A stretch of DNA of 32,620 nt from Pedosphaera sp. (lineage in GTDB: Bacteria > Verrucomicrobiota > Verrucomicrobiia > Limisphaerales > SIBH01), in contig JANOQV010000141.1 in the NCBI GenBank assembly GCA_031414955.1, positions 1 to 32,620 of the forward strand, in the 5' to 3' direction. This document shows, piece after piece, positions 4,075 to 22,521 of this stretch (positions within the stretch are counted from its first letter, which is position 1; each line of letters opens with the position of its first letter). The notes under the pieces are model-generated. The model saw only the letters and a program-made list of their open reading frames with translations, was not told the DNA's origin and did not search any database. The position numbers and the translations under genes are program-made.

Positions 4075-4103
4075 GAATCTATCGTCCTGTGACGAATAGA
4101 TTC
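4075..4103. promoter_or_regulatory. Near-perfect palindrome over the putative start of the MbnP-MbnH operon
   Basis: GAATCTATCGTC-ctgt-GACG(A)ATAGATTC: 12-bp arms with one bulged A, overlapping GTG 4089. Confidence 0.4.
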
Positions 4104-5912
4104 CGCCTTGTGAGGATCGCCATCAAATCAACGATAAGAGAGCGCCGCGCCCGAACGGTGTGGGCGGGCTTGTTCCTGTGCGGTGCGCTGGCCTGCTTCG
4201 GGCAGGATTCCCGCCAGAAACTCCGCCTGGAGTTTGAGCCGGAGTGGCAAGGGAAACCGCTGCGGCTGAACCAACGACTCGACCACAAAGCGGGCGGGGA
4301 ATTTTCCATTAGCCGCCTTGATGGTCTGATTTCCCAACTGGCCCTGCAGCGGCTGGATGGAACCTGGCTGGAAACCGACCGTTGGTATTTTTTCCTGAGC
4401 GTGAGTCAGGGTCGTCTCACCACCACGGCGGATGGTTTGCCGGCCCAGGAGTTCAAGGCGCTACGGTTTCGGGTGGGGCTTGATCCCAAGACGGATGCCG
4501 GCGACCCGCAGGTCTGGCCGGCGGACCATGCGCTGCATCCCGATGTCTGCGGCCTGCACTGGGGCTGGAACTCCGGCTACGTGTTTCTCGCCGTGGAAGG
4601 CCGCTGGCAACCGGAGCCGGCGCGCAGCAGCGGATTCTCCTATCACCTGGCCGGAGCGAAGGCACCGATGGTGGTGGAGGTGCCGGTCAAATTCTCCGGC
4701 GCTCAACCCACGACCATTCGCTTGAGCATGGAGATGAGCACGGTGCTGGCGGCGGGCGAAGTGTTGCGTGAATCCTCCTCCACTCATTCCCGGGACGGCG
4801 ATGCCCTGGCGATGCGGCTCAAGGCTCGGGTCACAAAGTCCTTCGCCGTGCAGAGCGTCACGACGGATCTCTATCAGGCGAAAACCGAGTTACTGTCTTC
4901 AATCCAGCCGCTGCCCGTCGGCACCAGGCCGTTCCCGCTGAACATTTCCGAGCGGCTGCCCAAGGTAAAACTGCCTGCCGACAATCCGTTGACCATCGAG
5001 GGCGTGGAACTGGGCCGTCGCCTCTTTCACGAGACGCGGCTCTCGCGCAACAACTCGCAGTCCTGCGCTTCGTGCCACGATCAGGCCAAAGGTTTCACCG
5101 ACGGTCTGACCCGCAGTCTCGGCGAGAGCGGCCAGAGCGGACGCCGCAATGCCATGCCTCTCGCCAATCTGGCTTGGGAGAAGGATTTCTTCTGGGACGG
5201 CCGCGCGAAGTCGTTGCGCGAGCAAGTGCTCAAGCCCATCCAGGACGCGCATGAGATGAACGAGACGCTGGAGCGCGTCACGGCCAAGCTGGAAGCAGAT
5301 CAAGAATACCGGGCGCGGTTCCAAGCCGCGTTTGGCAGCGCCGGCATCACACCGGAGCGCCTCGCCCAGGCTCTTGAACAGTTCCTGCTCACGCTGGTCT
5401 CGCAGGATTCCAAGTTTGATCGCGCCGCGCGCAAGCTCGTGACCCTGACGCCGCAGGAGCAGCGCGGCTTGCAACTCTTCGTCACCGAGCACGACCCGGC
5501 GCGCGGATTGCGCGGTGCCGATTGTTTTCACTGCCACGGCGGCAATCTCTTTCGCAACCAGCAGTTCATGAACAACGGACTGGAGGAGCGCGCCGGGGAT
5601 CGAGGCCGCATGGAAGTGACCGGTGCGGCGGCGGACCGCGGGAAATTCAAAGTGCCAACCCTGCGCAATGTCGCCCTGACCGCGCCCTACATGCACGACG
5701 GCCGCTTCGCCACGCTTGAGGAAGTCGTCGAGCACTACAACGGTTCCCTGCACCGCGCGCCCACGCTGGACCCGAATCTGGCCAAGCATCCCGCCGCCGG
5801 TCTTGGCCTGAGCACGGAGGACAAGGCCGCGCTTGTGGCCTTTCTCAAGACACTCACCGACGAGACTTTCACCGGAACGGCAACCCCGCCGCAATTGACC
5901 CAAACCAAGTAA
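4089..5912 (+). CDS. Fused MbnP-family copper-binding domain + MbnH/MauG-like di-heme cytochrome c peroxidase-family protein
   Basis: N-terminal half: [22 protein letters not shown] (WxW at aa 158-160) and FSYHLA. C-terminal half: [24 protein letters not shown] (aa 326), FFWDGRA, CFHCH (aa 479), [29 protein letters not shown]. Exact start uncertain. Confidence 0.85.
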
Positions 5913-5916
5913 GCCT

Positions 5917-8900
5917 ATGAAACCCCAATCCTCCTCGTTCCGCCGCGCGCGCGCCGCCGTCATGTGCAGCCTCGCGGCCTGCTCAGTGTTTTCTCCCGCC
6001 GTGCGCGCCGATGAAGATCCTCACGTCCAGGCGGACACTTTTGCGGCCGAAGCCGCCGCGCTCCTCCCGGCGGCGGACGTCATCTCAAAAGCCGTGCCCA
6101 CTCCGACCCAGCGCATCCTCTATGGCAACTGGAGTTCGGTGATACCCTGGACTCCGCACATCCCGGTCTCGGCCGCCACCCTGCCGGATGGGCGCGTGCT
6201 CACCTTCGCCTCGAACGAGCGCACTTCATTTCCAGCCGGACCCGAGTTCACTTACGCAGCCACCTGGAATCCGGCCACGGGGCAGTTCGTGGAATACAAT
6301 CACCCAAGCCACGACATGTTTTGCGGCGCGCTCGTGATGTTGCCCGATGGCCGAGTGCTGGTGAATGGCGGGCGCAACACCACGATCCGCTCGAGCATTT
6401 TCGACTACCGATCCAACGCCTGGACGCGCACGCCGGACATGAATGACGCGCGGTGGTACAACACCACCGTGGCCCTGCCCAACGGCCGCGCCTGGACCGT
6501 GAGCGGCAGTGGCGGCTCAGGCACGGCGGAACGATTCGATGTCGCCACGGGCTGGAGCCGGCAGACGGGCATCAACTGGAACCTGGTCACGAGCGAGCCG
6601 GGCTACATCAACATCTGGCATCCCTTTCTCGTCGTGGCTCCGGATGGTCGCCTGATTCACTTCGGACCGACCGACACGATGCACTGGGTGAACACGGACA
6701 ACACCGGCAGCATGACCAACACCGGCACGGTCGTCCCCGGCGCGCATTATCCGAAGGAAGGCTCGTGGGTGATGTTCGATGAAGGCCGCATTCTGGTGGC
6801 CGGCGGCGGTTCCAACACCACGGCCAATCCCAACGACACCACCACCGGCATCAGCAGCAAGACGGCCTACACCGTGGATGTCCGCACGGGCACGCCGGTG
6901 GTGACGCCCGCGGCCTCCCTGAATTTCGCGCGGCAGTTCGCCAACGCCACCGTCCTGCCCAACGGTGAAGTCATCGTCATGGGCGGCAACACCTCCGGCC
7001 TCAAGTTCAACGACACCGGTTCCATCCTCACTCCCGAAATTTGGAACCCCACCAACGGCCAGTGGCGCCAGGCGGCGGACATGTCCGTGCCGCGCAACTA
7101 CCATTCGCTCGCCTTGCTGCTGCCCGATGGACGCGTGCTTTCCGGCGGCGGCGGTCTCGGCGGCGGCAATCATCAGGACGCGCAGCTCTACACGCCGCCC
7201 ACGCTCTTCAATGCCGACGGCACCCTCGCCACCCGGCCCGTGCTCAGCGCCGCGCCGGCCAAGGTGGGCGCGGCCACGCGCTTCAACGTCTCGGGCACGG
7301 CGGGCTTGCAGAAATTCAGCTTCATCAAGATGTCGGCCATCACGCATTCGGTGAACACCGACTTGCGTTACCTCTCGCTCCCGTTCACGGAAACTTCGCA
7401 GGGCAATTACGAACTCACGGCGCACGCCAGCTTGAACGTGATGACGCCGGGCTACTGGATGCTCTTCGGCCTGAACGCGGCCGGCGTTCATTCCGTCGCG
7501 AAAATTGTCCAGGTGGATGCCGTCGCGGCGGTCAACGTCACGCCGCCCGGAAACCAGTCCTCGTACGTCAGCCAGCCCGCTTCCTTGCAGATGATTGGCA
7601 CCGGCCCGGCGGGCAGCGTGTTGAACTGGTCGGCTCTCGGCTTGCCGGCTGGCCTCGCCATCCACGGCACCAACGGACTGATCTCCGGCACGCCGACCAA
7701 CACCGGCACCTTCACGGCCCAGGTCACACTGCGCGCCGGGGCGGCTTCAAACACGACGGCCTTCACCTGGACGATTCAGCCGGCGACCTTCAGCCGGAAC
7801 TTCACCACCTTCACCAACGCCACCGGCCTGACTCTGAACGGCAACGCCGCGCTCTCCGGCAACGTGTTGCGCCTCGCGCCCAAGACGAAAAACAAAGTCG
7901 GTTCCGCCTTCCTGACGGCGCCGATTCTGATCAGCTCGAACACCTCGCTCTCCACGCGGTTTGTTTTCCGAACCCACGGCACCACCGATGGCGCGGATGG
8001 ACTGGCCTTCATCATCCAGGGGAACGCGGCCACGGCCATCGGCGGCGGCAACAGCGGTCTCGGCTACTCCGGGATGACGAAGAGCCTCGCGGTGGAGATG
8101 GACAACAACCAAAACACCGGCGACCCGAATGGCAATCACCTCGGCCTCCTCACCAACGGCAATGTGACCGCGCATCTCGCCACCTTCACGCCGGGCTGGG
8201 ATCTGGAAGACGGACAGAGCCACACGATCTGGGTGGAGTATGACGGCGTGTCCAATCAACTGCGTGTCTATGCCGCGCAGGGCATTGTCACCACGCGTCC
8301 CGGCAGTCCCGTGCTGACCGCGACCATCGATCTCCCGACCGTCGTGGGCGGGAGCCAGGCCTGGGTCGGTTTCAGCGGTGCGACCGGGTCAGTGAACAAC
8401 AATCACGACATCGAAAGTTGGAGCCTGACCGTGAATGCGTTCTCGCTGCCGGCCCAGCCAGTGCTGACCGCGCCCGGAGTCTCGACCTCGGTGATTGGCT
8501 CCGTGATCAGCCGGCAGCTTTCCGCCACCGATCCCAACGGCGATCTGCTGACCTGGAGCGCAACCGGTTTGCCCACCGGACTCTCCATCAATCCAGCCTC
8601 GGGACTGATCTCGGGCACACCCAGTCTCGTGGGAGTTTTCTCTCCCACCGTGGCCGTGACTGACAGCAACACGCCTCCAGTCAGCGCAAACTTCACCTGG
8701 ACGATCAACGATCTGCTCGCGGTTCAACCTCTCTCCGGCACTGTGGTGCTGGCCGGTTCCACGGTCACGAACACCGCCGTGTCTTCGGGAGGATTGAACC
8801 CCCAGTATCGCTGGAACTTCGGAGACGGTTCCCCGGACACGGCCTTCTCCAGTTCGCCCACGACCACGCACGCGTTTCCCATTCCAGGCCGCTATGCGAT

Positions 8901-11900
8901 CACCGTCACGGTGCGCGATGACACCGGCCGCGAAGTCACCGCGAGCTACCATCAAGCCGTTCATGCACCGCTCACCGCCGCGCGACCGACCGCGTCCAGC
9001 AGCATCGCTTACGAATCCAAGGGCACGAACTCGCGGGTCTGGGTCGTGAACCCGGACAACGACAGCGTGAGTGTGTTCCACACCCTCAGCTACGCGAAGC
9101 TCGCCGAAGTGAACGTGGGCCGCGCCCCGCGCAGCCTCGCGCTCGCGCCGGACGGACGGGTCTGGGTGGCGAACACCGAGTCGGCCACGCTGACGATCCT
9201 GCGCACCAACTTCACCGTCGCGCAAACCATCAGCCTGCCGCGCGGCTCGCGACCCTTCGGTGTGGTCTTCGATCCCGCCGGCCTGAACGCCTACGTCGCG
9301 CTCGAAGCATCTGGGAAAATCCTGAAACTCAATCCCACCAACGGCGCGACCATCGCTTCCCTGGAGGTGGGACCGGCCGTGCGCCATCTCTCCGTGACGG
9401 CGGATGGCACGAAGATTTTCGCCACGCGCTTCATCACGCCGCGATTGCCCGGTGAAGACACGGCCAGCCCGCAGACCACGGTGAACGGAGTGAAGTATGG
9501 CGGCCAGGTGCTGACCATCGACCGCGCGACCTTTGCCCTTGCCGGCACCATCATTCTCGAACACAGCGAACGGCCCGACTCCTCGATCTTCGGTCGCGGC
9601 ATTCCCAACTACCTCGGGGCCGCCATCATTTCCCCGAACGGCCAGACCGCCTGGGTAGCTTCCAAGCAGGACAACATCCGGCGTGGCCAGTTGCGGATTA
9701 ACAGCCAGCTCTCCCATGACCAGACCGTGCGCAGCATCGCCTCGCGCATCAACCTGACCACGCTCACCGAGGAGACAACCGTGCGGCTCGACTTCGACAA
9801 CGCCGGTATCGCCAGCGCCGCCGCCTTTGATCCGCAGGGCGTGTTCCTTTTCACCGCGCTCGAAGGCAGCCGGGAAGTGGCCGTGGCCGACACGGTGGCG
9901 AATCAGGAAATCCTGCGCTTTGAATCCGGCCGCGCGCCGCAGGGTCTGGTGCTCTCGCCCGACGGCCGGAAGTTGTTCGTCCACAACTTCATGGACCGCA
10001 CGATCAGCGTTCACGACCTCACCGCGCTGGTGAATGGCACCGCGACCGCCCCGCCTGCGCCCATCGTGTTGCCCTGCGTGACGACGGAGCAACTCGCGGC
10101 CAACGTGCTGATCGGAAAACAATTTTTCTACGACTCGCGCGACACCCGCATCGCCTTGCAGCAGTACATCAGTTGCGCCGCCTGCCACAACGACGGCGGA
10201 CAGGACGGCCGCATCTGGGACTTCACCCAGTTCGGCGAGGGCTTGCGCAACACCATCACGCTGCGCGGCCACGGCGGCACGGCGCAGGGGCCGGTCCACT
10301 GGACGGGCAACTTCGACGAGATTCACGACTTCGAAGGCCAGATGCGGAATTTCGCTGGCGGCACCGGCCTGATGAGCGACTCGAACTACTTCGCCGGCAC
10401 GCGCTCCCATCCGCTCGGTGACACCAAGGCGGGCTTCAGCGCCGACCTCGACGCGCTCGCGGCCTACGTCAGTTCCCTGACCAAGAATGGCGACAGCCCG
10501 GATCGCAACGTGGACGGAACCTTCACCAGCGCGGCCCTCGCTGGACAGGCCGTGTTCCAGCAACAGAACTGCGCGCAATGCCACGCTGGTCCGCAGTTCA
10601 CCGACAGCGCGCTCAATGTCTTCCGCAATGTGGGCACGTTGAAGCCGTCGAGCGGCCAGCGCCTCGGCTCACCCTTGACCGGACTGGACACGCCGACGTT
10701 GCTCGGACTGTGGGACACCGGGCCGTATCTGCACGACGGTTCCGCCGCCACGCTCGAACAAGCCGTCAGCGCGCACACCAACGTCACCATCAATCCGGCC
10801 GACCTCACGAACCTCGTCGCCTACCTGCGCCAGCTTGATGACGGCGGCGCGTCCTCGCCGACGCTCAGCGGGATTCCCGATCAAATCACGCTCGTGAACA
10901 CGGCGACCGCGCCCATTCCTTTCGTCCTGAACGACCTCGACACGCCACTGGTCAACGTGACGGTGAGCGGCACTTCTTCCAATCTCGTGCTCGTGCCCAA
11001 CGCCAACATCGTGTTCGGCGGATCGGGGACGGACCGCACCGTGACCATTTCACCCGCGCCGCATCGAATCGGCACAGCGGTGATCACGATTACCGTGAGC
11101 GACGGGCTGTTCTCGGTGGCCACGAGCTTCGTCCTCACCGTGCAACGAAAAACCGTGGCCGTGGCTGGTGTGGCGGCCGCCAGCAAAGCGTACGACGGCA
11201 CCACGGCCACTTCGCTCGACGCGTCAAGTGCATCGCTGGTGGGAGTGGAGGCCGGCGATGAGGTGACATTGGATGCGACAGGAGCCAGCGCGGCATTCGT
11301 GAATCGAAATGTGGGCGACGAAAAATCCGTGCAGATCACCGGACTCTCCCTGGGCGGAATCCACGCGGACAGTTACACGCTCACCCAACCGGGAACCAAG
11401 GCCAACATTACGGCCAAGGGTTTGGTCGCCACGGGGATTATCGCGCAGGCAAAAATCTATGACGGCACTGTGTCCGCTTCACTCGACACCGCCAGCGCCG
11501 CGCTGATCGGAGTGGTGAGTGGAGATGAGGTGGGGTTGGTGACGGCCGGGGCGAGTGCGGCCTTTGCCGACAAGAACGCGGGCCTTGGAAAGCCCGTATC
11601 GATTACAGGAGTCGCCCTCGGTGGCTCCAATGCCGCCAACTATTCGCTGACCCAGCCAAACGCTCTCGCGACCATCGCGCCCGTGTCACTCACAGTCACG
11701 GCGGAGAACAAGAGCCGCCATTATGGAGCGGACAACCCATCGTGGACGGCAGCCTTCGTTGGTTTTGTTCCCGGCGAGTCGCTGCTCAATAGCGGCGTCA
11801 CCGGCAGCCCCGCGCTGAATTGCACCGCGACGAACACCACGCCGCCCGGCGCTCATCCGATCACGACCACGATGGGCACGTTGCAGGCGATCAATTACAG

Positions 11901-12162
11901 CTTCGCCTGCGTCGGCGGCACGCTCACCATCTCGTCCCCTGGACAGGTGCGAGTTGCCGCCATCGTGCGCCTGCCCAACCAGCACGCGCGTCTCACCGGC
12001 ACCGGCGATCCAGGCGTGGCCTACCAGATTCAGTCCTCCACCAACCTGACCCAGTGGGCCGACCTCGGCACCGTGACGGCAGGAGAAGATGGCGCGTACG
12101 AATTCGACGACGCGAACGCGGCCGCGTTGGGAACATGCTTCTATCGCGTGAGGCTGCCCTGA
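5917..12162 (+). CDS. 2081-aa secreted multidomain protein: copper radical oxidase (AA5/galactose oxidase-like + DUF1929), Ig (He_PIG), legume lectin, Ig, PKD, YVTN beta-propeller, di-heme cytochrome c, cadherin-like, 2x YDG, MBG, C-terminal tail domain
   Basis: Signal peptide; HDMFC, RWYNT, PRNYHS, ITHSVN; GLPAGLAI..GLISGTPT; GADGLAFIIQ...SLAVEMD...WVGFSGATG; YRWNFGDG; VWVVNPDNDSVSVF; CAACH, CAQCH, TGPYLHDG; KAYDG/KIYDG; KSRHYGADNP; SSTNLTQW...FYRVRLP. Confidence 0.9.
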   Translation: MKPQSSSFRRARAAVMCSLAACSVFSPAVRADEDPHVQADTFAAEAAALLPAADVISKAVPTPTQRILYGNWSSVIPWTPHIPVSAATLPDGRVLTFASNERTSFPAGPEFTYAATWNPATGQFVEYNHPSHDMFCGALVMLPDGRVLVNGGRNTTIRSSIFDYRSNAWTRTPDMNDARWYNTTVALPNGRAWTVSGSGGSGTAERFDVATGWSRQTGINWNLVTSEPGYINIWHPFLVVAPDGRLIHFGPTDTMHWVNTDNTGSMTNTGTVVPGAHYPKEGSWVMFDEGRILVAGGGSNTTANPNDTTTGISSKTAYTVDVRTGTPVVTPAASLNFARQFANATVLPNGEVIVMGGNTSGLKFNDTGSILTPEIWNPTNGQWRQAADMSVPRNYHSLALLLPDGRVLSGGGGLGGGNHQDAQLYTPPTLFNADGTLATRPVLSAAPAKVGAATRFNVSGTAGLQKFSFIKMSAITHSVNTDLRYLSLPFTETSQGNYELTAHASLNVMTPGYWMLFGLNAAGVHSVAKIVQVDAVAAVNVTPPGNQSSYVSQPASLQMIGTGPAGSVLNWSALGLPAGLAIHGTNGLISGTPTNTGTFTAQVTLRAGAASNTTAFTWTIQPATFSRNFTTFTNATGLTLNGNAALSGNVLRLAPKTKNKVGSAFLTAPILISSNTSLSTRFVFRTHGTTDGADGLAFIIQGNAATAIGGGNSGLGYSGMTKSLAVEMDNNQNTGDPNGNHLGLLTNGNVTAHLATFTPGWDLEDGQSHTIWVEYDGVSNQLRVYAAQGIVTTRPGSPVLTATIDLPTVVGGSQAWVGFSGATGSVNNNHDIESWSLTVNAFSLPAQPVLTAPGVSTSVIGSVISRQLSATDPNGDLLTWSATGLPTGLSINPASGLISGTPSLVGVFSPTVAVTDSNTPPVSANFTWTINDLLAVQPLSGTVVLAGSTVTNTAVSSGGLNPQYRWNFGDGSPDTAFSSSPTTTHAFPIPGRYAITVTVRDDTGREVTASYHQAVHAPLTAARPTASSSIAYESKGTNSRVWVVNPDNDSVSVFHTLSYAKLAEVNVGRAPRSLALAPDGRVWVANTESATLTILRTNFTVAQTISLPRGSRPFGVVFDPAGLNAYVALEASGKILKLNPTNGATIASLEVGPAVRHLSVTADGTKIFATRFITPRLPGEDTASPQTTVNGVKYGGQVLTIDRATFALAGTIILEHSERPDSSIFGRGIPNYLGAAIISPNGQTAWVASKQDNIRRGQLRINSQLSHDQTVRSIASRINLTTLTEETTVRLDFDNAGIASAAAFDPQGVFLFTALEGSREVAVADTVANQEILRFESGRAPQGLVLSPDGRKLFVHNFMDRTISVHDLTALVNGTATAPPAPIVLPCVTTEQLAANVLIGKQFFYDSRDTRIALQQYISCAACHNDGGQDGRIWDFTQFGEGLRNTITLRGHGGTAQGPVHWTGNFDEIHDFEGQMRNFAGGTGLMSDSNYFAGTRSHPLGDTKAGFSADLDALAAYVSSLTKNGDSPDRNVDGTFTSAALAGQAVFQQQNCAQCHAGPQFTDSALNVFRNVGTLKPSSGQRLGSPLTGLDTPTLLGLWDTGPYLHDGSAATLEQAVSAHTNVTINPADLTNLVAYLRQLDDGGASSPTLSGIPDQITLVNTATAPIPFVLNDLDTPLVNVTVSGTSSNLVLVPNANIVFGGSGTDRTVTISPAPHRIGTAVITITVSDGLFSVATSFVLTVQRKTVAVAGVAAASKAYDGTTATSLDASSASLVGVEAGDEVTLDATGASAAFVNRNVGDEKSVQITGLSLGGIHADSYTLTQPGTKANITAKGLVATGIIAQAKIYDGTVSASLDTASAALIGVVSGDEVGLVTAGASAAFADKNAGLGKPVSITGVALGGSNAANYSLTQPNALATIAPVSLTVTAENKSRHYGADNPSWTAAFVGFVPGESLLNSGVTGSPALNCTATNTTPPGAHPITTTMGTLQAINYSFACVGGTLTISSPGQVRVAAIVRLPNQHARLTGTGDPGVAYQIQSSTNLTQWADLGTVTAGEDGAYEFDDANAAALGTCFYRVRLP
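11150..11680 (+). repeat. Tandem intragenic duplication of two YDG-type domains (~88 aa each)
   Basis: KAYDGTTATSLDASSASLVGVEAGDEV...GASAAF...YTLTQP versus KIYDGTVSASLDTASAALIGVVSGDEV...GASAAF...YSLTQP. Confidence 0.8.
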
Positions 12163-12405: not shown

Positions 12406-13953
12406 TCACTTGCCCGGGGCCGCCGCCGCCGGGGCCGACCAGGCGCGGAAGACGGCGTGGATTCTGGCCGCGGTCTCTGGTCCCACCGAATTGATCTCGC
12501 CGTAGGGCGCCTTTTTCGAGTCGTAGAGGAACGGTGGCTTCCGGTCGAACTCACTCCGCGGAATGATGTAACCGATCTCATCGTTGGCCAGGCCGAAGAT
12601 GAATTTCACGCGGCCCGGCAACAGCTCGCGCAAGGGCGGCGTCTCCAGCGGTAGTCCCGGATAGTCCGCGCCCGGCGGCGTCTCGAGACCGCCGTTGACC
12701 AGCTCGGGATAAATCTCGCCCGGGATGCAGGCGATGGACGTGTCGCCCAACTGCACGAGCGCGACCTCGGTGCGAATGGTTTTCCAGCGCACCTGTCCGC
12801 GATCGATCAGCCCGATGATGGGGGCGAGCAGAAAACCGGTGTTGTCCAAGGGCAGCTCGATGGTCCGGGCACGAATGGAGATGGGAACGCGGGCGAGGGT
12901 TGTGACGTTGGTCGCTTCGAGCCGGGGGAGGATTTTCGCCGCGAGCGCCCGGCCCACGGCGCGGGCCTTTTCGTGGGAAGGCTTCTCGAAGTCCTGTTCG
13001 AGAAATGGATCACGCACTTTAACTTTGGGCGTGGTGCTCATCAATCCGCCGACCGCGCCGTTGACGAAGAGGTGGATGCCGCCCACGCCCGCGCGCAGCA
13101 TGAGGTTCTGTTCGTAAACGCCGTTCTCCAGTGCCTCGCGCAAATAGCCGGGGAAATCGGCGGTAATCTCGGTGTTGCGCGACCAGACGGTTTCGGGGTG
13201 GTTGGCCCAACCGACAATGGAACCAAGCGTCGCGTCGTTCGTTGGGTTGGTGAAGTGCAGCACGCGCAGATCGGGGTCGAAGACAATGGGCTTGCGCGTG
13301 TCCGCGACGAGACCCTCGGGCGAGGACGGGATTTCATGCACCGCCAGGCGCGCAGGAACCAGGGCGGCGGCGGCGGCATCGAGAGCCTGCGCGGCGGCGG
13401 CAATCACCTGCCGGCGATAGTCGGCGTTCACCCCGGTGCGGGAATAATCCGGCCCCCACAAACCCATCAGGTCAGGCGTGGAATGGTTGTGCGTGGAACA
13501 CACCACGGCGTAATCAATCTTGGAACCAGGCTGAATCCGGCGGCGGACTTCGATCACGTCGTCATGAAAAAAACCGATGGCATCGAGCACCACGACGCCC
13601 AGGCGCGTGTGACCGTCGTCGATGACGCAGGCCACCGCCCAAAGGTCGTCGTGGATCTTCGTGGCCGCGCGATGCTGGTTGAACCCCGCGAGCCAGATGG
13701 GCCGGCCGGGCTGCGACAGGTCGGGATTGATCATCACACGAGCAAAGCCAGCGCGCAGCGGGGCGGTCCCGGCGGGGCGGGCGGGCGGGCTGATGTTCAG
13801 GTCCACCTGGTAACCGGGATGACGATCCCGAAAGGCCAGGCCCGTTCGCAACCCGACTGCGGCCACGAAGAGAAACAGGAACCAGGAGCCAAGACGCAAC
13901 GCCTCGCGCCACCAACGGCGGCGGGCGGAAGGAGCGGAAGGAGTGGGGTTCAT
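12406..13953 (-). CDS. Membrane-anchored neutral/alkaline ceramidase-like metallohydrolase
   Basis: N-terminal TM helix; LRAGFARVMINP, WLAGF...RAATKIHDDLWA, STHNHSTPD, WANHPE, ITADFPG, IPGEIYPE, GLANDEIGYI. Confidence 0.75.
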   Translation of the reverse strand: MNPTPSAPSARRRWWREALRLGSWFLFLFVAAVGLRTGLAFRDRHPGYQVDLNISPPARPAGTAPLRAGFARVMINPDLSQPGRPIWLAGFNQHRAATKIHDDLWAVACVIDDGHTRLGVVVLDAIGFFHDDVIEVRRRIQPGSKIDYAVVCSTHNHSTPDLMGLWGPDYSRTGVNADYRRQVIAAAAQALDAAAAALVPARLAVHEIPSSPEGLVADTRKPIVFDPDLRVLHFTNPTNDATLGSIVGWANHPETVWSRNTEITADFPGYLREALENGVYEQNLMLRAGVGGIHLFVNGAVGGLMSTTPKVKVRDPFLEQDFEKPSHEKARAVGRALAAKILPRLEATNVTTLARVPISIRARTIELPLDNTGFLLAPIIGLIDRGQVRWKTIRTEVALVQLGDTSIACIPGEIYPELVNGGLETPPGADYPGLPLETPPLRELLPGRVKFIFGLANDEIGYIIPRSEFDRKPPFLYDSKKAPYGEINSVGPETAARIHAVFRAWSAPAAAAPGK

Positions 13954-15515
13954 CGCGCGGGGACGGTGGCAAACCCGCAGCGGTTAAGCATGGCATTTAT
14001 TTCGCCGGGACTCGCGCCCAGCTTGGGCGCGGCCGCCAGCAAATCTTCCGCGAGGGCCGGATACCAGTTGCGCCGGTCAGGTTGGGCCAGGCCGGCGATG
14101 TTCACCGGTTCGATGGCGCGCTGGATTTTCGTGAGCAGCTCCAGCCGGGCGGCGCCGGTGGGTTTGCGCAGTGCCGCTTCGAGACACTCGCGACAGCGCG
14201 ACGCGAAGTGCGGGTGCTCTCCGAGCAAAAATGTGTTCCCCACCAGTTCGAGACGGCCGAGCCGGCGCGCGGTTTCCGTGAAGCTGGCGGCGGCGAAGTA
14301 AAGCAGGGTGAGCGCGTGGAACAATTCCGCGTCGGGCATCGAGGCGTAGAGCGCCGCGATGAGCCGCCCGGTCGCGACGAGTTCCACCGTGGTTTGCATG
14401 GAGTAGTTGAGCACTTCAGAGGTGAATTCCTCGCGCTCCCAACTGGACTCGAGGATGCGCGCCAGTCGTTCCACCCCGAGCAGCGTGAGCGGGAAACCGG
14501 TCGAGAGCAGCGGATCAACGAAGCCCGCCGCGGAGGGCAGCAGCGTCCAGTTCGGCCCGGCCATCTCGCCGCTCAAAAAGGCCAGTGGCTTGGCCTGGAC
14601 GAACGGTCGCGTGGCGCGGGCGTCAGCGAATTGGGCGCGCACGCTGGGAAGTTTTTCCAGCAGGCGTTGCCAGGCCGGTTCACCTTCCGCGAAACGCAAC
14701 TCATGGGCGCGTTTGTCCACCGCCGCCACGCCCGCGCTGGTCACGCCGTTGTTGAAGCGCAGCACCCAGATCCAGCCACCGTCGAAGACGTGATGCACGG
14801 CGGCGTCATCGACGGGATACGGCGGTGTTTCCTGCTCGCGATTTAATTCGTCCCACCGTTTCACACCGGTGAAGTGCGTGTAGAGCGCCTGAGTAGGCGG
14901 CAGATGCTTGAAGGGCACTGCGGGCAAATCGAGCGCGCGATGCAGGAAACCGCGCGGCCCGGTGGCATCGATGATGAAGCCGGCGTGAATCTCCAGGGGC
15001 TGGCCGTGATGGCGGCCTTGCAGCACGGGGCGCTTTTGCCCGGCGTCCACACCCCACAACTCCGTCTGGTCGAGATACTCCACGCCGAGTTGTTGTGCCT
15101 GTTCGACGAGGAAGGCATCGAAGTCCGGTCGATACCAGTGCGTGTCAGCAATGTGATCGTGAGGCGAGGCGGCGACGAGCAACTGGCGGCGGTGCGCGCG
15201 GTCGTCGCGGAAGGAACGGCCCAGTTCGTGATGGAAAAAGGTGAAGCCACGCTTGAGACCGCAGGCGATCTCCGGGTGCGACTGCTGCCACGTTCCCCAC
15301 TTGGCGAGCGGTCGAATCATGGGCAGGTCGTAACGCACAGCCAGTTCTTCGAGGATCAAGTTGGCCAGCGGCGTGGAGGATTCACCGATGACGAAGCGCG
15401 GATGCTTGGACTTCTCGATCAGCACCACCGAAAGCCCGAGCCGCCGCGCAATCATGGCGATGAGCGAACCGGCAAAGCCGGAACCAATCACCGCGATGTC
15501 GCAAGCGCGTTCCAC
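13950..15515 (-). CDS. Flavin-dependent halogenase, PrnC/CtcP-like
   Basis: GSGFAG FAD motif, HPRFVIGES, GLKRGFTFFH (candidate catalytic Lys), HWYRPDFD, HHVFDGGWIWVLRFNN (WxWxI variant), GFVDPLLSTG. GTG start; ATGA overlap with the next gene. Confidence 0.8.
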   Translation of the reverse strand: MERACDIAVIGSGFAGSLIAMIARRLGLSVVLIEKSKHPRFVIGESSTPLANLILEELAVRYDLPMIRPLAKWGTWQQSHPEIACGLKRGFTFFHHELGRSFRDDRAHRRQLLVAASPHDHIADTHWYRPDFDAFLVEQAQQLGVEYLDQTELWGVDAGQKRPVLQGRHHGQPLEIHAGFIIDATGPRGFLHRALDLPAVPFKHLPPTQALYTHFTGVKRWDELNREQETPPYPVDDAAVHHVFDGGWIWVLRFNNGVTSAGVAAVDKRAHELRFAEGEPAWQRLLEKLPSVRAQFADARATRPFVQAKPLAFLSGEMAGPNWTLLPSAAGFVDPLLSTGFPLTLLGVERLARILESSWEREEFTSEVLNYSMQTTVELVATGRLIAALYASMPDAELFHALTLLYFAAASFTETARRLGRLELVGNTFLLGEHPHFASRCRECLEAALRKPTGAARLELLTKIQRAIEPVNIAGLAQPDRRNWYPALAEDLLAAAPKLGASPGEINAMLNRCGFATVPAR

Positions 15516-15613
15516 GGGAGGATTGAATCAGGAAGGTGAGGCAAGGGAAAGACGGGGCGGGCGTCGCTGGCCATGGGGCCGCATCTCGGAAGCACCACCA
15601 TTGTTCCATCTTC

Positions 15614-15780
15614 GCGACGTAACGCCGGCTTTCCAGCCGGCAGGTTGGGAGGCTTTCCAGTCTCCCGCAGGTGTTACCCTCAAGATGCGCGCAGGCAAGG
15701 ATGGTGCGTCTTGGAAGCACAACGAAAACGAGACTGGAAAGTCTCGTTACCTGCCGGCTGGAAAGCCGGCGTTACGTCGC
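15614..15780. repeat. Composite REP/BIME-like element
   Basis: Perfect 32-bp inverted repeat gcgacgtaacgccggctttccagccggcaggt (15614-15645) / 15749-15780. Inner hairpins: gggaggctttccagtctccc (15647-15666) and aacgagactggaaagtctcgtt (15727-15748). Confidence 0.9.
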
Positions 15781-16629
15781 TGGGACCGCGCGTTGCAATC
15801 CCAGCGCCAGCAGGAACAGCACAACAAAGATCCCGGCCACCGCGCGGGGCGCGTCGGCCACCGCCAGCAGGTCCACCCAGACGATGCCGGCGAGCAAACC
15901 GGACACCGCGCGTGAGACGGCGCGCGGCTCCATCCAGACGTGGCGCAACGAGCGCACCGTCCAGAGCGCGAAGACCAGGGCGAGGAGCATGGCCGGCTGG
16001 CGGTAGCGATCGTCGTTGACCAGCAGCGTGAGCGCAATCGGCACGGCGAGGAGAAACTGCGGCCAGCGTTGAATGACCACGCCGGTCGATTCGTTCCGCG
16101 CCAGATAACTCAGACCGACGATGTACGAAGACAGCGCCAGCGCGCTCCACACCGTCAGTCCGGTAATCCCTTCGCGCGCCGCCGAGGCCGCGACCAGGTA
16201 AAGGAGGAAGCGGCACAGCGCCATGAGCAGCGGCGAGATGGTGACCAGTTTATGAACCGCGTCGTAGAGCACGATGCAGCCGCACAGCAGCACCGCCAGG
16301 ACTCCGGTGGAAAGTCCGAGCGGAATCAGCAGGGCGACACCCAGCACCAGCATCACGAGGCCAAGACGCCAGACCGCAGCCAGGCTGATGGCTCCGGAGG
16401 GGATCGGTCGCTCGCGTCGATGCTGCGAGTCGAACTCCGCGTCGAAGGCGTCGTTCAAATACATGCCGCCGACGTAGAGCAGCGTCGCGCCGGCAGCGAG
16501 CAGCGCGAAACGCGTCCAATCGCCGCCGTGGCCGAGCAGCCAGCCCGCGAGACAGTTGGACCACACGGTCGGCAGATTCGACACGCGGCCCAACACCAGA
16601 AGTGTTCTCAACCTGGAAGGCGAAGTCAT
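15772..16629 (-). CDS. UbiA-family prenyltransferase (EboC-like)
   Basis: LGRVSNLPT, YLNDAFDAEFD...RERPIPSG (first Asp-rich motif), YDAVHK, LMALCR, multiple TM helices. Confidence 0.9.
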   Translation of the reverse strand: MTSPSRLRTLLVLGRVSNLPTVWSNCLAGWLLGHGGDWTRFALLAAGATLLYVGGMYLNDAFDAEFDSQHRRERPIPSGAISLAAVWRLGLVMLVLGVALLIPLGLSTGVLAVLLCGCIVLYDAVHKLVTISPLLMALCRFLLYLVAASAAREGITGLTVWSALALSSYIVGLSYLARNESTGVVIQRWPQFLLAVPIALTLLVNDDRYRQPAMLLALVFALWTVRSLRHVWMEPRAVSRAVSGLLAGIVWVDLLAVADAPRAVAGIFVVLFLLALGLQRAVPAT

Positions 16630-16676
16630 CGGCGCGAGAGCTAAACAGGATTCTGGAAAACACCAACATCAAAGGC

Positions 16677-16782
16677 GGGACGCAGACTTTTCGGTCCGCA
16701 GAAATGATCGAAACGAAAGGTGCCGACCCGGTAAGGGCCAGCCGGCATTCCACGTTGCTGCGGGCTGGAAAGCCCGCGCTCC
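16677..16782. repeat. Degenerate REP doublet
   Basis: gggacgcagacttttcggtccgcag (16677-16701) matches the reverse complement of 16758-16782 (ggagcgcgggctttccagcccgcag) at 18/25. Same architecture as the REPs at 3309 and 15614. Confidence 0.7.
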
Positions 16783-16799
16783 AGGCGCTCCACGCCGCC

Positions 16800-17447
16800 T
16801 CACTTCGCCGGTTTGGGGATAAAAAGCTTCTTCCCAATTTGGAGCCGGTCCCAATCCACAGTCGGGTTGGCTTCCTTGATGGACTGCGCGGTGACCATGA
16901 CGCCTTCCTTCCGATGCTTTTGCACGATGATGGACAGGGCGTCGCCGGGCTTGATGATGTAATCGAATCCCAGTTGCGGCCCGTTGTTAGGCGGCGGCCG
17001 TGAACCGCCGCCAGGGTTGTCCGTTGATGGAGGAGGATCGCTCGGAGGATTGCGCGGTGGCCGTCCGGCGGTCGGCGGTGGCATGCTTAATATCCTCTCG
17101 AGGGAGCGGGCCAGCTTGTCCATCGCTTCCTGGATGCGCTTGTTGTCGGCAATGCGCGCCTCGTCCACCTTCAAAATCTGCTCCCGGAGCCGGCGGATGG
17201 ATTCCTGCGTCTCGGTGTTGTTGTTATTGCGTGCCGCGTCTTCGCGCAGCTTGCTGAGGTCGGAAGCGAGGACGTTGATCTGCTTCTGCTGCGCCGCCTG
17301 GCTGGTCTGAAATTCTTCGAGCGTGGCGGTGAGGCGCTTCATGCGCTCCTCGGCTTCCTGCTGGGTGGCGATGGTGATGGCGTCAGCGGCGCGAAGCACG
17401 GCCGTCAAGACGCAGAGCGAAGCGAGAAGAATAAGAGCACGATTCAT
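16800..17447 (-). CDS. Secreted coiled-coil + LysM peptidoglycan-binding protein
   Basis: Signal peptide, heptad coiled coil, Pro-rich linker, C-terminal YIIKPGDALS.I...NPTVDWDRLQIGKKLFIP. Start ATG 17447. Confidence 0.9.
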   Translation of the reverse strand: MNRALILLASLCVLTAVLRAADAITIATQQEAEERMKRLTATLEEFQTSQAAQQKQINVLASDLSKLREDAARNNNNTETQESIRRLREQILKVDEARIADNKRIQEAMDKLARSLERILSMPPPTAGRPPRNPPSDPPPSTDNPGGGSRPPPNNGPQLGFDYIIKPGDALSIIVQKHRKEGVMVTAQSIKEANPTVDWDRLQIGKKLFIPKPAK

Positions 17448-17455
17448 GGCGCTGG

Positions 17456-17483
17456 AAATTAAGAGACCCCGACGGGGCTTCAA
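17456..17483 (-). promoter_or_regulatory. Sigma70-like promoter, probably leaderless
   Basis: TTGAAG-16 bp-TAATTT-8 nt-ATG 17447. Confidence 0.55.
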
Positions 17484-17511
17484 AGTTCAAAATTGAAGAG
17501 ATGCTTCAAAG

Positions 17512-19044
17512 TTATTCGCCCGGAGCCGCCCCATGGCGCGACTGGCGACGTGGGCCGGTTCTCGGGCGCGGGGCCGCTGGTTCGCCTGCAAGGTGCGGCA
17601 GGTACGGCCCGAGGAAGCTGGGCTTGTCGTGCCGGCCACCGCGCCGGTAATCGCTCCAGAGCACGGGGGCGACTCGGACAGGATCGAGTCCGCGCTGCTG
17701 AGTCAGGAACGCGAAGAGGAGTTGCATCAAGCGCACCAGGGCAATGCTGTCGGTCCGGCCAACCTGGGTGTAAAGCCAGTCGCTGAAGGCCAGGAAGCCG
17801 GCGAACGGAGCGTCCGCCCACAGCAGCGGCGCGGTCTCGACGAAGTTGCCGCTGTTCCCTACCAGTTCCCAATACTTGGCGAAACGACGCAAGCGTTGCA
17901 TGTCCGCAAATGGGATAAGGCGGTTCTGCAAAATCTCGTAAGGCGGGCCGGCGCTGTAGGCCATGCCCCATGCCGTGTCGTGCCGCGAGATGGGCGTGCC
18001 GCGCAGCCGCTTGAGGATGCCGACCTGGATTTCTTGCGGCCCCAACGCGACCAACCGGTCGAAGCCCGCCGCGAAGCTCTCGAGGGTTTCGCCGGGCAGA
18101 CCCGCGATCAAATCGGCGTGGATGTGAACGCCGGTCTGGCCGCGCAGGTAACGGAAGTTATCCTCCAACCGCGCGTAGTTCTGCTTGCGTTGGATGAGCG
18201 CGCCGGTCTGCTCGTTGAAAGTCTGCACGCCGACCTCGAATTGCAGCGCGCCCGGCGGGAACTTGGCGATGACCTCGCGCAGAGCCTCCGGCAGCCGGTC
18301 CGGCACCATCTCGAAATGGAAGAACAGACCCGGCTGCCAGCGTTCGAGGAAAAACGTCAGCAGCGCGCGGCTCGTGTTCAGGTTCAGGTTGAAGGTGCGA
18401 TCCACGAACTTGAACTGCTTCACGCCGCGGTCGATCAGCCGTTGCAAGGCCTCGAACATTTTCTCCAGCGGAAACTGCCGTACCGGAATGTCGAGCGACG
18501 AAAGGCAAAACTCACAGGTGAACGGGCAGCCACGCGAGGCCTCCACGTAGATGATGCGGTGCGCGATGTCGTCGTCGTGGTAGAGATCGTAGGGCAGCAC
18601 GAGCCGGTTCACGTCCGGCAGTTCGGCGGGAATGATTTTGTCGGCGGGCTTTTCGCCCCGAAGCAACAAATCGCAGACGGCCGCGAACTTAAAGTCCGCC
18701 TCGCCTGTGATGACGTAATCGGCCAGCGCCACGATGGGCTGCGTCTCCCATTCGTAGCTCACTTCCGGCCCGCCGAGGATAATGATGATGTCCGGCCGAA
18801 GTCCTTTGATGGCGGAGACGACTTCCAAAGTCTCGGCCACGTTCCAGATGTAAACGCCGAAGCCAAGAATGCACGGTTCGCGGGCCAGCAACACCTCCAC
18901 GATGTCAAGCGGGCGCTGGTTGATGTCGAATTCGACGAGACAGGCGCGCGCCTGCAACGCGCCAAGGTTCGCCATCAGATAGCGCAGCCCGAAGGCGGCG
19001 TGAATGTACTTGGCGTTGAGCGTGGTGAGAACGATGTCCGGCAT
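17512..19044 (-). CDS. B12-binding radical SAM protein (DUF4080 type)
   Basis: [50 protein letters not shown] (CxxxCxxC), [11 protein letters not shown]. Start ATG 19044. Confidence 0.9.
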
Positions 19045-19052
19045 CGGGGCGA

Positions 19053-19080
19053 AGGTTAGCGGGAATTCCCGGCGGCGCAA
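19053..19080 (-). promoter_or_regulatory. Sigma70-like promoter, probably leaderless
   Basis: TTGCGC-16 bp-TAACCT-8 nt-ATG 19044. Confidence 0.5.
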
Positions 19081-19227
19081 TGCGGAGGAAACGCGCGGAA
19101 GATTTGGAAGAACCATCGCAGGGCGAGCCTTCAACCTGGGTCAGCGCCGGAGACGCGGCAGAGAATAGCCCACCGCGCTGCGACTGAGTTTGAAAGCCTG
19201 GGAGCAGGAACGGGAACACAGCCGCCG

Positions 19228-19253
19228 TACTGATGACTGCTCACTGATTACTT
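19228..19253. repeat. 7-bp periodic short tandem repeat at the shc stop codon
   Basis: TACTGAT-GACTGCT-CACTGAT-TACT; includes the shc TGA on the minus strand. Confidence 0.5.
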
Positions 19254-21229
19254 CCCGCCCCACGCACCGCCTCGCCGATCGGCTCGCCGCGCAGCAGCTT
19301 GCGATAGGTGGCGAGGGCCAGCAGCGGCCAGGCGTTCCGGTACATGTCGTACTTGAGGTAGAAGACTTTCGGGAAGCCGGTGCCGGTGACTTCGTTTTCG
19401 GTCCACGAACCGTCGGCGTTCTGCGTGCGGGTCAGGTATTCGATGCCGCGCTGGACGCTGGCGCGGTTGGGGTCGCCGAAGGCGAGCAGGCCCATCACGG
19501 CCCAGGCAGTCTGCGAAGCGGTGCTGGGACCGCGCCCCTTGTAGACGGGATCATCGTAGGTATTGCAACGCTCGCCCCAGCCGCCATCGCTGTGCTGGAC
19601 GCTCTCCAGCCAGTCGCGCGCCTTGATCAGCCAGGGTTGCTGCATGTCCAGGCCCATCGCCCGCAAACCACGCGCAACCTGCCAGGTGCCGTAGATGTAA
19701 TTGACGCCCCAGCGGCCGTACCATGAGCCGTCGGACTCCTGCTGTTCGCGCACGTAGTCGAGCGCCTTCTGCACCTGCGAATGGTCCTGATCCCAGCCCT
19801 CGTAACCGAGCAGTTCGAGAATGCGCGCGGTGATGTCGGCGCACTCGGGGTCGAGCATGGCGTTGTGATCGGCGAAGGGAAATTTCTCCAGAATGCTTTT
19901 GGTGCAGTCTTTGTCGAAGGCCGCCCAGCCGCCGTCCTTGCACTGAAAGGTCATCATCCACTTCAGGCCGCGTTGGAAGCATTCATCGCGGCGCTTCGGA
20001 TCATCGGTGGGGATTTTGCGCAGCGCCAGGAGAACCATAGCCGTGTCGTCCACGTCCGGGTTCCATTTGTTATTGTACTCGAAGACCCAGCCGCTTGGCT
20101 CGACCTGGGCCGGGTTCTTGTACTTCCAGTCACCGCGAAAACGAATCTCGTGGTCCATGATCCAGGAACAGGCCTTCTTCATGGCCGGATGTTCGGCGGG
20201 CACGCCGGACTCGTGCAGGCAGATGGCGACGATGGCGCTGTCCCACACCGGCGAGAAACACGGCTCGACCCGCACGCTGTCCTCGGTCTCGTGCTGGAGG
20301 CGCTTGAGTTCGCGCTCGGCGCGGAGCACTTGCGGATGGTCATCGGCGTAGCCCAGCGCCTTGAGGGCGATCAGCGAATTCAGCATGGCCGGGAAAATCG
20401 CGCACAACCCGTCGGTGCCCTCGAAGCGTTCCAGCATCCACTGCTCGGCCTTTTTCAGGGCGAACTTGCGGAAGGGGCGGAGGTGATACTGCTCGACGAA
20501 CTTGAGCAACTGATCGAGCCAGAGGAAGAAGTTGCGGAAGGTGAACGTGTCGGGATCGGGCGCGGGCGCAAGATCGCGTTCGTGATAGCCCAAAGGATGC
20601 AATTCATTCAAATCCACCGCCACCTTCCGGGTGGGCTTGTAGTGGTTGATGATCGAGAGCGGCACGAGCATGGAGCGCGTCCAGTTGCTCATGTCGTGAA
20701 AGTTCACATGGAACCATTTGCCGATGAGAATGACCTCGCTCGGAATGGTCGGCACGTAATCCCACGGGAACAGGCCCAGCAGCGCGAGGTAGAGCTTGGA
20801 GAAGGTGTTCAGCCGTGGCACGCCGCCGAGGTTCTTGGCCATCTCGCGGGCACGCAACATGCGCGGGTCGGTCACAGGCACGCCGGCCAGCTTCAAGGCC
20901 AGATACGCCTTGATCGTAGCGTTCACTTCCGCCGGGCCGCCGGTGTAGATGTTCCAGCCGCCGTCCGGCAACTGCATGGAGAAGAGGTGATGGACGGCCT
21001 TCCGCTGCCACGCGGGGTCCATGTCACCGGCCCAGTGGTGGTAGGCCACCATGTCCGAGACCAGGGTGGAGTCCACCATCAGTTCCCCGACCCAGTAGCC
21101 TTCGGGCTTCTGGATGCCCAGCAAGTAATCCTGCGACCTCGCGATCGCGAGGTCGGCGGCGGAAACGGGTTTCGCGCTGAAAGAATCGGAAGCGCGCCCG
21201 CTCTGCTTGTAAGTTTGCGTCAGCAGCAC
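19241..21229 (-). CDS. shc: Squalene-hopene cyclase
   Basis: PDVDDTA (DxDD), QW repeats (Q.PDGGW, QCKDGGW, QESDGSW, QHSDGGWGE, QNADGSW), SPVWD, GTGFP..FYLKY. Start GTG 21229 is supported by a promoter-like motif. Confidence 0.97.
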   Translation of the reverse strand: MLLTQTYKQSGRASDSFSAKPVSAADLAIARSQDYLLGIQKPEGYWVGELMVDSTLVSDMVAYHHWAGDMDPAWQRKAVHHLFSMQLPDGGWNIYTGGPAEVNATIKAYLALKLAGVPVTDPRMLRAREMAKNLGGVPRLNTFSKLYLALLGLFPWDYVPTIPSEVILIGKWFHVNFHDMSNWTRSMLVPLSIINHYKPTRKVAVDLNELHPLGYHERDLAPAPDPDTFTFRNFFLWLDQLLKFVEQYHLRPFRKFALKKAEQWMLERFEGTDGLCAIFPAMLNSLIALKALGYADDHPQVLRAERELKRLQHETEDSVRVEPCFSPVWDSAIVAICLHESGVPAEHPAMKKACSWIMDHEIRFRGDWKYKNPAQVEPSGWVFEYNNKWNPDVDDTAMVLLALRKIPTDDPKRRDECFQRGLKWMMTFQCKDGGWAAFDKDCTKSILEKFPFADHNAMLDPECADITARILELLGYEGWDQDHSQVQKALDYVREQQESDGSWYGRWGVNYIYGTWQVARGLRAMGLDMQQPWLIKARDWLESVQHSDGGWGERCNTYDDPVYKGRGPSTASQTAWAVMGLLAFGDPNRASVQRGIEYLTRTQNADGSWTENEVTGTGFPKVFYLKYDMYRNAWPLLALATYRKLLRGEPIGEAVRGAGSNQ

Positions 21230-21281
21230 GGTGCGGACTTTGCGTGACCCGCGCGGAAACAGGCAAGAATGGAAATGGACG

Positions 21282-22271: not shown

Positions 22272-22485
22272 CGGCGCGTGTGTACGGGCAACGCGACGGC
22301 GGTGACAAGCCTCGAAGCAGAGGCGGGGATTGGAGGGGCGCTTCTTGAAACTGTTCTTCCTCCGATGCCGTGATGATGGCGTGCGGCGGGGCGCGCTGGG
22401 GACAGCGACGCCCGCCCGCCCGGCCCCGTTCGACAACAACCGTGTCCAGATGCGCCGCCCTTGTCGGTGCGCCGGGAATTTTCCG

Positions 22486-22514
22486 TTGGCGCGTTTCGAC
22501 ACCGAACGTATGGT
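22486..22514 (+). promoter_or_regulatory. Sigma70-like promoter, probably leaderless
   Basis: TTGGCG-17 bp-TATGGT-7 nt-ATG 22522; no Shine-Dalgarno. Confidence 0.6.
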
Positions 22515-22521
22515 GTCGCCC

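Follow-up and report, generated by a model that had tools for sequence, protein, structure and literature searches.

In M. trichosporium OB3b, the copper protein MbnP carries a WxW motif and its partner MbnH is a MauG-like diheme protein with a bridging Trp and a heme-2 distal Tyr (7L6G and 6E1C; TIGR04052 and TIGR04039). MbnP/MbnH pairs are known outside methanobactin operons (PMC3621798), and a 2025 review (PMC11951088) regards the biological role of kynurenine copper proteins as an open question. Here we describe a locus on a contig of the verrucomicrobial Pedosphaera sp. (assembly GCA_031414955.1, JANOQV010000141.1; the window is this whole stretch of 32,620 nucleotides, nt) in which an MbnP-MbnH fusion, open reading frame 1 (ORF1), is directly followed by ORF2, a giant chain of copper radical oxidase (CRO), propeller and diheme domains; chains of the ORF2 type are called giants below. 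ORF1 shares with the M. trichosporium pair the MbnP fold, the WxW motif and the diheme with its Trp and Tyr. It differs in being one polypeptide, in having Leu for Met and an extra invariant His, in lacking a four-Cys pattern, in scoring below both TIGRFAM cut-offs, and in having a cuproenzyme as its neighbor.

Several other systems resemble parts of the locus. Streptomyces GlxA, with Sco, ECuC and DtpA, is a bacterial CRO with a Trp before the cross-link Tyr, as in ORF2; a copper chaperone and a heme peroxidase serve its maturation, Sco and DtpA being needed at low copper, and the partner uses peroxide, as described in PMC4736821. At the present locus the chaperone candidate is MbnP rather than Sco, the peroxidase-like unit, a c-type diheme, belongs to the same chain, the CRO resembles AA5_2 galactose oxidases more closely in sequence, and, unlike the GlxA system, no cellulose-synthase-like gene was found among the scanned ORFs of the window. 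In the fungal tandem AlcOx-Perox, oxidase and peroxidase are likewise genetically tied and the peroxidase activates the CRO, but these are separate head-to-head genes and the peroxidase is a class II heme-b enzyme (PMC9770985), whereas ORF2 has a fused diheme of predicted bis-His type, whose activating role is only proposed and which is found in CRO-less proteins as well. Hydrazine synthase beta/gamma (5C2V; PMC12607021) has a seven-bladed propeller, then a diheme of the bacterial cytochrome c peroxidase (bCcP)/MauG fold with a bis-His second heme, a coordination predicted in ORF2. The ORF2 module is about 20% identical in the propeller, far under the NCBIfam cut-offs, fused to a CRO, and found in a host that is probably aerobic and non-anammox. 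Finally, MopE/SACCP and CorA/CorB of methanotrophs are surface copper proteins with a His/His/kynurenine site and an adjoining diheme peroxidase (PMC3621798, PMC11951088); the residues of ORF1 likewise suggest a His-rich site, but the fold of those proteins is other than that of MbnP, and no oxidase client is known for them in these accounts.

An earlier sequence-only reading had taken MbnPH as a dedicated copper-delivery or maturation partner of an exported cuproenzyme and had considered this role undescribed. Searches of the open-access literature found no MbnPH beside a cuproenzyme and no CRO-diheme fusion, a weak negative given that the primary MbnP/MbnH papers (10.1073/pnas.2100680118; 10.1074/jbc.RA119.010202) were outside the search; neighborhood analyses in those papers may list fusions or oxidase neighbors already. 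The general arrangement of a chaperone and a peroxidase maturing a CRO is not new, being known from GlxA, Sco and DtpA (PMC4736821).

ORF1 and ORF2 are co-oriented, and ORF2 starts 4 bp past the end of ORF1. The co-orientation, the gap, the WxW motif, the four CxxCH motifs and the five oxidase residues first reported from the sequence were all present. The features are as follows.

4089..5912, + strand: ORF1, MbnP-MbnH fusion, 607 aa (open reading frame and profile matches)
4209..4859, + strand: MbnP-fold domain, residues 41-257 (PF20243; fold match to 7l6g)
4560..4568, + strand: WxW motif, W158-G-W160 (W158 in 81/81 rows, W160 in 77/81)
4929..5882, + strand: MbnH-like diheme domain (CxxCH at 326 and 479, bridging W369, Y550 at the heme-2 distal position)
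5913..5916, + strand: intergenic gap GCCT, 4 bp (sequence)
5917..12162, + strand: ORF2, CRO/propeller/diheme giant, 2081 aa (open reading frame and profile matches)
5917..6096, + strand: signal peptide (to about residue 31, by eye), then a His/acidic segment, H-x3-D-x-F-AAEA (pattern in relatives)
6121..7515, + strand: copper radical oxidase, Kelch propeller and E-set (PF09118 and Kelch matches; fold match of a homolog model)
7516..8937, + strand: variable spacer of Ig (He_PIG), legume-type lectin (residues 628-841), Ig and PKD domains (profile matches)
8941..10041, + strand: YncE/YVTN seven-bladed propeller (profile matches)
10042..10866, + strand: second diheme domain (CxxCH at 1420 and 1552, W1462, His1620 at the heme-2 distal position)
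11146..11928, + strand: stalk of two YDG domains and one MBG_2 domain (profile matches)
11941..12159, + strand: C-terminal domain of about 70 residues (recurrence in ORFs of the genome)

The pairing of the fusion with the oxidase is real and conserved. Linkage was assessed at the best 80 of 113 genome loci of the oxidase domain, of which 59 were informative (at least 2300 nt of upstream sequence). MbnP and MbnH lay directly upstream at 44 of these, MbnH at 45 and neither at 14; MbnH was also seen at 9 of the 21 loci with shorter upstream sequence. The loci with the pairing span four orders (Limisphaerales-type, Verrucomicrobiales, Chthoniobacterales and Opitutaceae records). The gap, measured in 58 pairs of relatives, was -4 nt (a 4-nt overlap) in 30 and at most 30 nt in 56. 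When 200 genomes drawn evenly from the order were surveyed, counting oxidase matches of at least 55% identity, 13 close matches were found in 11 genomes, and MbnH was directly upstream in 11/13; the exceptions were a second copy in genome G125 without MbnH upstream and a copy that begins at a contig end. By comparison, none of 13 ordinary CRO matches (31-36% identity) was on a contig with an MbnH-type match, among the matches listed (77 of 227 lie beyond these).

Phylogenetic analysis gave the same picture. A tree of 90 full fusions was built by a quick search with the Shimodaira-Hasegawa-like approximate likelihood ratio test (SH-aLRT) and no bootstrap, leaving out frameshifted copies and loci L125-L144, which duplicate longer or earlier ones. 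All 50 oxidase-adjacent fusions fell in one 58-row branch (SH-aLRT 100), its other rows being 3 fusions at contig ends and 5 unlinked ones, every one of the latter from a genome with an unlinked giant. Of the 14 unlinked giants, 10 come from Verrucomicrobia, and each of these 10 genomes carries an oxidase-branch fusion elsewhere; on the oxidase tree, fusion and giant have separated independently at least three times. The pairing was kept through repeated exchanges of the spacer and stalk domains of the giant, and no neighbor other than MbnPH recurs across lineages at the compared loci. Kin are not independent of one another, and the link may have arisen once. Conserved adjacency in related genomes, on which the sequence-only reading had staked its proposal, thus held up, with 44/59 loci, tight gaps and one branch of fusions.

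Within ORF1, PF20243 (MbnP) matched residues 43-222 with 94 bits (cut-off 27). In a structure model of ORF1 (predicted local distance difference test, pLDDT, 85; predicted template modeling score, pTM, 0.77) the MbnP domain matched 7l6g with Z 17.0 and a root-mean-square deviation (rmsd) of 3.4 over 206 aligned residues. This structure was reached only by profile and fold, a single-sequence search with the MbnP domain having given no PDB match. ORF1 scored 20.8 bits against the cut-off of 140 for the MbnP equivalog TIGR04052, and its mature MbnP domain has one Cys where that family has the four-Cys pattern. H157, W158, H186 and H233 are invariant in the alignment of MbnP domains, and W158 is the predicted kynurenine precursor. 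M. trichosporium MbnP has a Met two residues before the first Trp, which we take to be a copper ligand; ORF1 has Leu156 there (GMAWNW of 7l6g aligns with GLHWGW, a weak alignment, E 0.029), and the position is Leu in 76/81 rows and Met in 5/81. The MbnP copper site is given as His/Met/kynurenine in PMC11951088, and by analogy with MopE and CorA that of ORF1 is likely to be His/His/kynurenine. H150 and C154, near the WxW motif, are typical of the oxidase-linked branch, one or the other being present in 36/58 of its rows and in 0/32 sister rows. As a requirement they were rejected, since both are missing in 22/58 rows of that branch.

The diheme domain of ORF1 is closest to MbnH 6e1c both in sequence (E 1e-50 in the PDB) and in fold (Z 29.6, rmsd 2.5, 303 aligned). 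Its CxxCH pair, W369 and Y550, which align with 6e1c, are invariant in 83/83 rows, and Y550 presumably has the role of Y294 in MauG. TIGR04039 (MbnH) gave 253 bits, under its cut-off of 362.85 yet the best score of all models. The fusion is widespread: of 7998 candidates scored, 6114 gave a match of some strength, and both domains were present in all 120 listed. By eye, a Sec-type signal peptide ends near residue 38. The start may lie 23 codons later (4158, 584 aa), and the database protein has 584 aa.

The oxidase domain of ORF2 has the complete catalytic site. C136, Y181, Y395, H396 and H477 align with the site of galactose oxidase and are invariant in 82/82 aligned CRO domains, and the features of AA5 enzymes were found: the Cys/Tyr cross-link pair, the axial Tyr, two His ligands, and Kelch and C-terminal E-set domains. 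The structure model of a homolog, L112, matched 9g43 (Z 56.2, rmsd 1.8, 460 aligned); the fold is closest to AA5_2 galactose oxidases, whose structures outscored GlxA and 9n3u. The galactose-oxidase-type site that had been reported was therefore confirmed in its five catalytic residues, but the W290/R330 pair of galactose oxidase, an indicator of galactose 6-oxidase activity (PMC11267884), is missing. The W290 position is G199, as in the W290G mutant 2eid (Gly in 80/82 rows), and the R330 position is I231 (I, V or E across rows, Arg in none). A galactose 6-oxidase identity was rejected on this ground. Trp directly precedes the cross-link Tyr (W180-Y181) in 82/82 rows, with RWY in 21/22 distant copies; this is the arrangement of fungal aldehyde oxidase and GlxA (W509-Y510 in FgrAldOx, W288 in GlxA; PMC13094651). 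The GlxA-type model NF052501 gave 159 bits against a cut-off of 800. R102, F105, W234, K363 and F364 of the domain are also conserved. Because the W290/R330 pair is absent and Trp precedes the cross-link Tyr, we would guess from these residues that the substrate is an aldehyde or a non-galactose compound. The His/acidic segment that precedes the domain is a candidate pro-sequence or metal-handling arm; its pattern occurs in 81/86 close giants and 1/22 distant giants, 17/22 of which have a lipobox in its place.

The constant core of the giant is oxidase, PKD, propeller and diheme, and the spacer and stalk vary; in relatives the spacer has PA14, F5/8 or jacalin-like modules in place of the legume lectin, or none. 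The propeller of a homolog model matched hydrazine synthase beta (5c2v_B) with Z 37.6 and rmsd 2.1 over 304 aligned residues, with 1l0q narrowly behind (Z 36.6), and among diheme proteins of the PDB, hydrazine synthase gamma is the best match to the second diheme domain (E 3.5e-15). Scores with the NCBIfam hydrazine synthase models were far lower than their cut-offs (NF052342, 58.8 bits against 1250; NF052341, 51.1 against 625). The minimal natural giant, L112 (1190 aa), folded with pLDDT 85 and pTM 0.59, the diheme part being the least confident.

The heme-2 distal residue of such proteins is Tyr in the MauG type and Met in the bCcP type. In the second diheme domain, His1620 sits where ORF1 has Tyr550 (both 14 residues from the HDG His), and His was found in 69/70 and 33/34 rows, so that the second heme is predicted to be bis-His. 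A His at this position rules out the MauG-type bis-Fe(IV) state. The second diheme domain was accordingly rejected as a MauG-type maturase, and as a canonical bCcP, since His1620 stands in place of Tyr or Met. Two peroxidase-like diheme domains are indeed present, as had been read from the sequence, but they differ in kind. Because of His1620 versus Tyr550, and the incompatibility of His with a MauG-type bis-Fe(IV) state, they are unlikely to do the same job.

The C-terminal domain has no Pfam match. A match to its approximately 70 residues is present in 95 ORFs of the genome and lies within 15 aa of the stop in 88; by eye, it ends many large proteins, including YHYH proteins of relatives. This suggests a sorting or export domain, a candidate verrucomicrobial export signal. 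The surface location first reported for ORF2 is a prediction from the signal peptide and this domain. Unusual arrangements among relatives include a Rivibacter protein (P0122) in which the PKD-propeller-diheme-PA14 block is present twice, two giants in tandem (L173), and a genome with two full operons (G088). Records titled Bifidobacterium or Akkermansia muciniphila (L047, L058, L070 and L102) carry the operon and are nested among Limisphaerales or Prosthecobacter copies; these titles look like mislabels.

Building on the observed gene order, spacing, domain content, catalytic residues and clade-specific linkage, we propose that the MbnP-MbnH fusion supplies copper to the CRO domain of the giant, a proposal to which we give about an even chance. 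Both proteins would be Sec-exported and have their c-hemes attached, and the MbnH domain, with H2O2, would oxidize W158 of its own chain to kynurenine, as in M. trichosporium. MbnP would then bind Cu(I), probably at a His-rich site of H157, H186 and H233 rather than a His/Met site, with H150 and C154 joining it in many oxidase-linked members, and would hand the copper to the apo-oxidase in the envelope, whereupon the Cys136-Tyr181 link would form by itself. The lectin may place the oxidase on glycans, where aldehyde or alcohol groups other than galactose C6 would be oxidized and H2O2 made. The fused propeller and bis-His diheme may use this H2O2, likely re-oxidizing the Cys-Tyr radical or clearing peroxide. 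The role of MbnPH would be an aid in copper shortage rather than an absolute requirement.

Giants that lack the oxidase served as a control. In a phylum sample of 300 genomes, with 8-18 kb fetched around close diheme matches, MbnP or MbnH was found at 0/9 loci of CRO-less propeller-diheme giants (8 genomes) within the fetched sequence; therefore, MbnPH follows the copper domain and not the diheme module. The sample contained no oxidase-linked pair, and the system is therefore patchy. These sister giants (L245-L253; e.g. L246, 4623-9512) have an LVIVD-type N-terminus in several cases, then Big_5, PKD, a YncE propeller and a His-type diheme. The same module thus stands behind LVIVD-type N-terminal domains, and a diheme module specific to the oxidase was rejected. 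The present genome may have such a gene as well: the end of contig C33 (L003 1-1641, - strand) encodes a PKD-propeller and the start of contig C102 (L004 1-1347, + strand) a His-type diheme. These may be parts of a single CRO-less gene that was broken up in the assembly and that, by eye, lies behind a pair resembling an extracytoplasmic function (ECF) sigma factor and its anti-sigma factor.

More distant giants were assessed in a metagenome set fetched with the Rivibacter protein, of which 44 of 79 loci were examined, the other 35 being weak PKD-type matches. MbnPH was found at 4 of the 44, all beside close-type oxidases, and at 6 (two of them identical sequences) a distant CRO giant was immediately followed by a SCO gene. 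On the Comamonadaceae plasmid CP099607, SCO is one gene further downstream of the CRO giant. The SCO-linked rows fall at two places on the oxidase tree (FastTree, with one long branch).

Several observations weigh against copper supply by MbnPH. The MbnPH neighbor is missing at 14 of the 59 informative loci, the majority of the distant, lipoprotein-type giants have no adjoining MbnPH, SCO or other copper gene, and PF20243 had no match in four giant-bearing genomes (two Chloroflexota and two unclassified, completeness not given). The co-variation of fusion and giant (Mantel rho 0.55) is expected from linked inheritance alone. Because the Met ligand is Leu in 76/81 rows, copper binding by the MbnP domain of ORF1 is itself extrapolated, and the genome has two SCO genes elsewhere. 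The Cys-Tyr link is given in PMC11951088 as forming autocatalytically and hence does not require a maturase, and the occurrence of the diheme module without a CRO weakens the self-activation step. Finally, fusions of the sister branch adjoin YHYH proteins, in 20/32 rows of the tree and in 6/7 cases of the phylum sample, and the metal of YHYH proteins is predicted to be zinc (PMC7824862; bioRxiv 10.64898/2026.10.18.759936). The dedicated partnership was therefore borne out in part: the adjacency is conserved, tight, clade-specific to one verrucomicrobial branch and tracks the copper domain, with SCO in distant relatives, but giants occur in MbnP-less genomes and many loci have no copper gene.

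The YHYH neighbors point to a wider reading, which we consider possible though doubtful: MbnPH fusions may be self-maturing kynurenine copper chaperones with client-specific branches, one loading the self-activating CRO and the other YHYH proteins. The fusion/YHYH pairing recurs widely in the phylum, and the second MbnP-MbnH fusion of the present genome (contig C117; L001 2114-5876, + strand; 48% identical) lies directly behind an exported YHYH protein. The same neighbors would also suit a general envelope copper scavenger that is co-regulated with an exported metalloprotein and raises local copper without a specific hand-over. Methanotroph MbnPH is reported to act in copper release or uptake from methanobactin, Cu-bound methanobactin staying in the medium when mbnP or mbnH is deleted (PMC13729199), and the two genes no longer stand together in one Prosthecobacter-type lineage, which would fit as well. 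Such a role is nevertheless unlikely, given that one genome keeps two fusions of different branches, each by its own partner (C141 and C117), that H150/C154 are branch-specific, and that contig C141 is without a TonB receptor. We find it rather unlikely, too, that the MbnH domain oxidizes the oxidase itself (its Cys-Tyr radical or Cu(I)) in the manner of DtpA or the fungal tandem peroxidase, with MbnP secondary. CROs do depend on peroxidases for one-electron activation (PMC9770985), DtpA is required in GlxA maturation (PMC4736821), and the Tyr550/W369-type diheme is invariant (83/83). However, every complete giant examined has its own diheme unit, the WxW site of MbnP is kept invariant, and the recurrent neighbor where MbnPH is absent is SCO and not a peroxidase.

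The flow could also be reversed, the oxidase being a local H2O2 source for kynurenine making by MbnH, and copper-binding MbnP the product that matters. That MbnH reacts with H2O2 (PMC11951088), that the oxidase makes it and that the genes are tightly spaced would fit, but a 2000-residue lectin-bearing enzyme is hardly needed for a one-time modification, sister fusions do without a CRO and giants persist without MbnP, and we regard this flow as improbable. Least credible of all is a neighborhood merely inherited, with no functional link. Its patchy distribution (11/200 genomes of the order) fits block transfer, and the tree has at least three independent separations of the genes; even so, the arrangement was kept over four orders despite repeated swaps of spacer and stalk domains, no other neighbor recurs across lineages, and the separated genes co-occur in 10/10 genomes.

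If copper supply by MbnPH is true, the giant would be the first client enzyme for MbnP. The pair names a concrete, assayable client with a color read-out (H2O2), and a cultured carrier exists in Brevifollis gellanilyticus NBRC 108608 (locus L089). The giant is also a candidate natural fusion of oxidase and peroxidase, which is of interest because a peroxidase usually has to be supplied to CRO biocatalysts, and it would place a module similar to hydrazine synthase beta/gamma in an aerobic setting. Should the client-specific reading be true, YHYH proteins would form a previously unrecognized class of exported copper enzymes.

The window is the complete contig C141 of a 6.5-Mb genome (completeness 95.9%, contamination 5.8%). 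The closest named relatives of ORF1 and ORF2 are from Verrucomicrobiota, the nearest being Limisphaerales-type metagenome-assembled genomes, and cytochrome c assembly genes are present elsewhere in the genome. The absence of methanobactin genes and a TonB receptor from the window, noted from the sequence, was upheld: TIGR04159 (mbnB) had no match genome-wide (the genome being 95.9% complete), and none of the 6 TonB receptor (PF00593) matches of the genome is on this contig. A methanobactin cluster was ruled out on this basis. A promoter scan gave 0 sigma-70 sites, terminator-like sites were at chance level (10 against 7.1 +/- 2.7, with 0 between the two genes), and no upstream 8-mer was common to more than 7/45 loci. 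An imperfect palindrome at 4075-4103 overlaps the called GTG start of ORF1, relatives sharing no motif there; the true start may be 4158, and the palindrome may be an operator or hairpin.

Downstream of the pair, 12406-22637 holds ceramidase-like, flavin halogenase-like, UbiA-like, B12 radical SAM and squalene-hopene cyclase genes, which related loci are without and which seem unrelated to the pair. At 29540-31048 (- strand), 17 kb from the pair, is a gene for a secreted protein with one CxxCH and HH and HxH motifs. Its sequence weakly matches copper type II (peptidylglycine/dopamine-type) monooxygenases in both of their halves, and it is a further candidate exported cuproenzyme.

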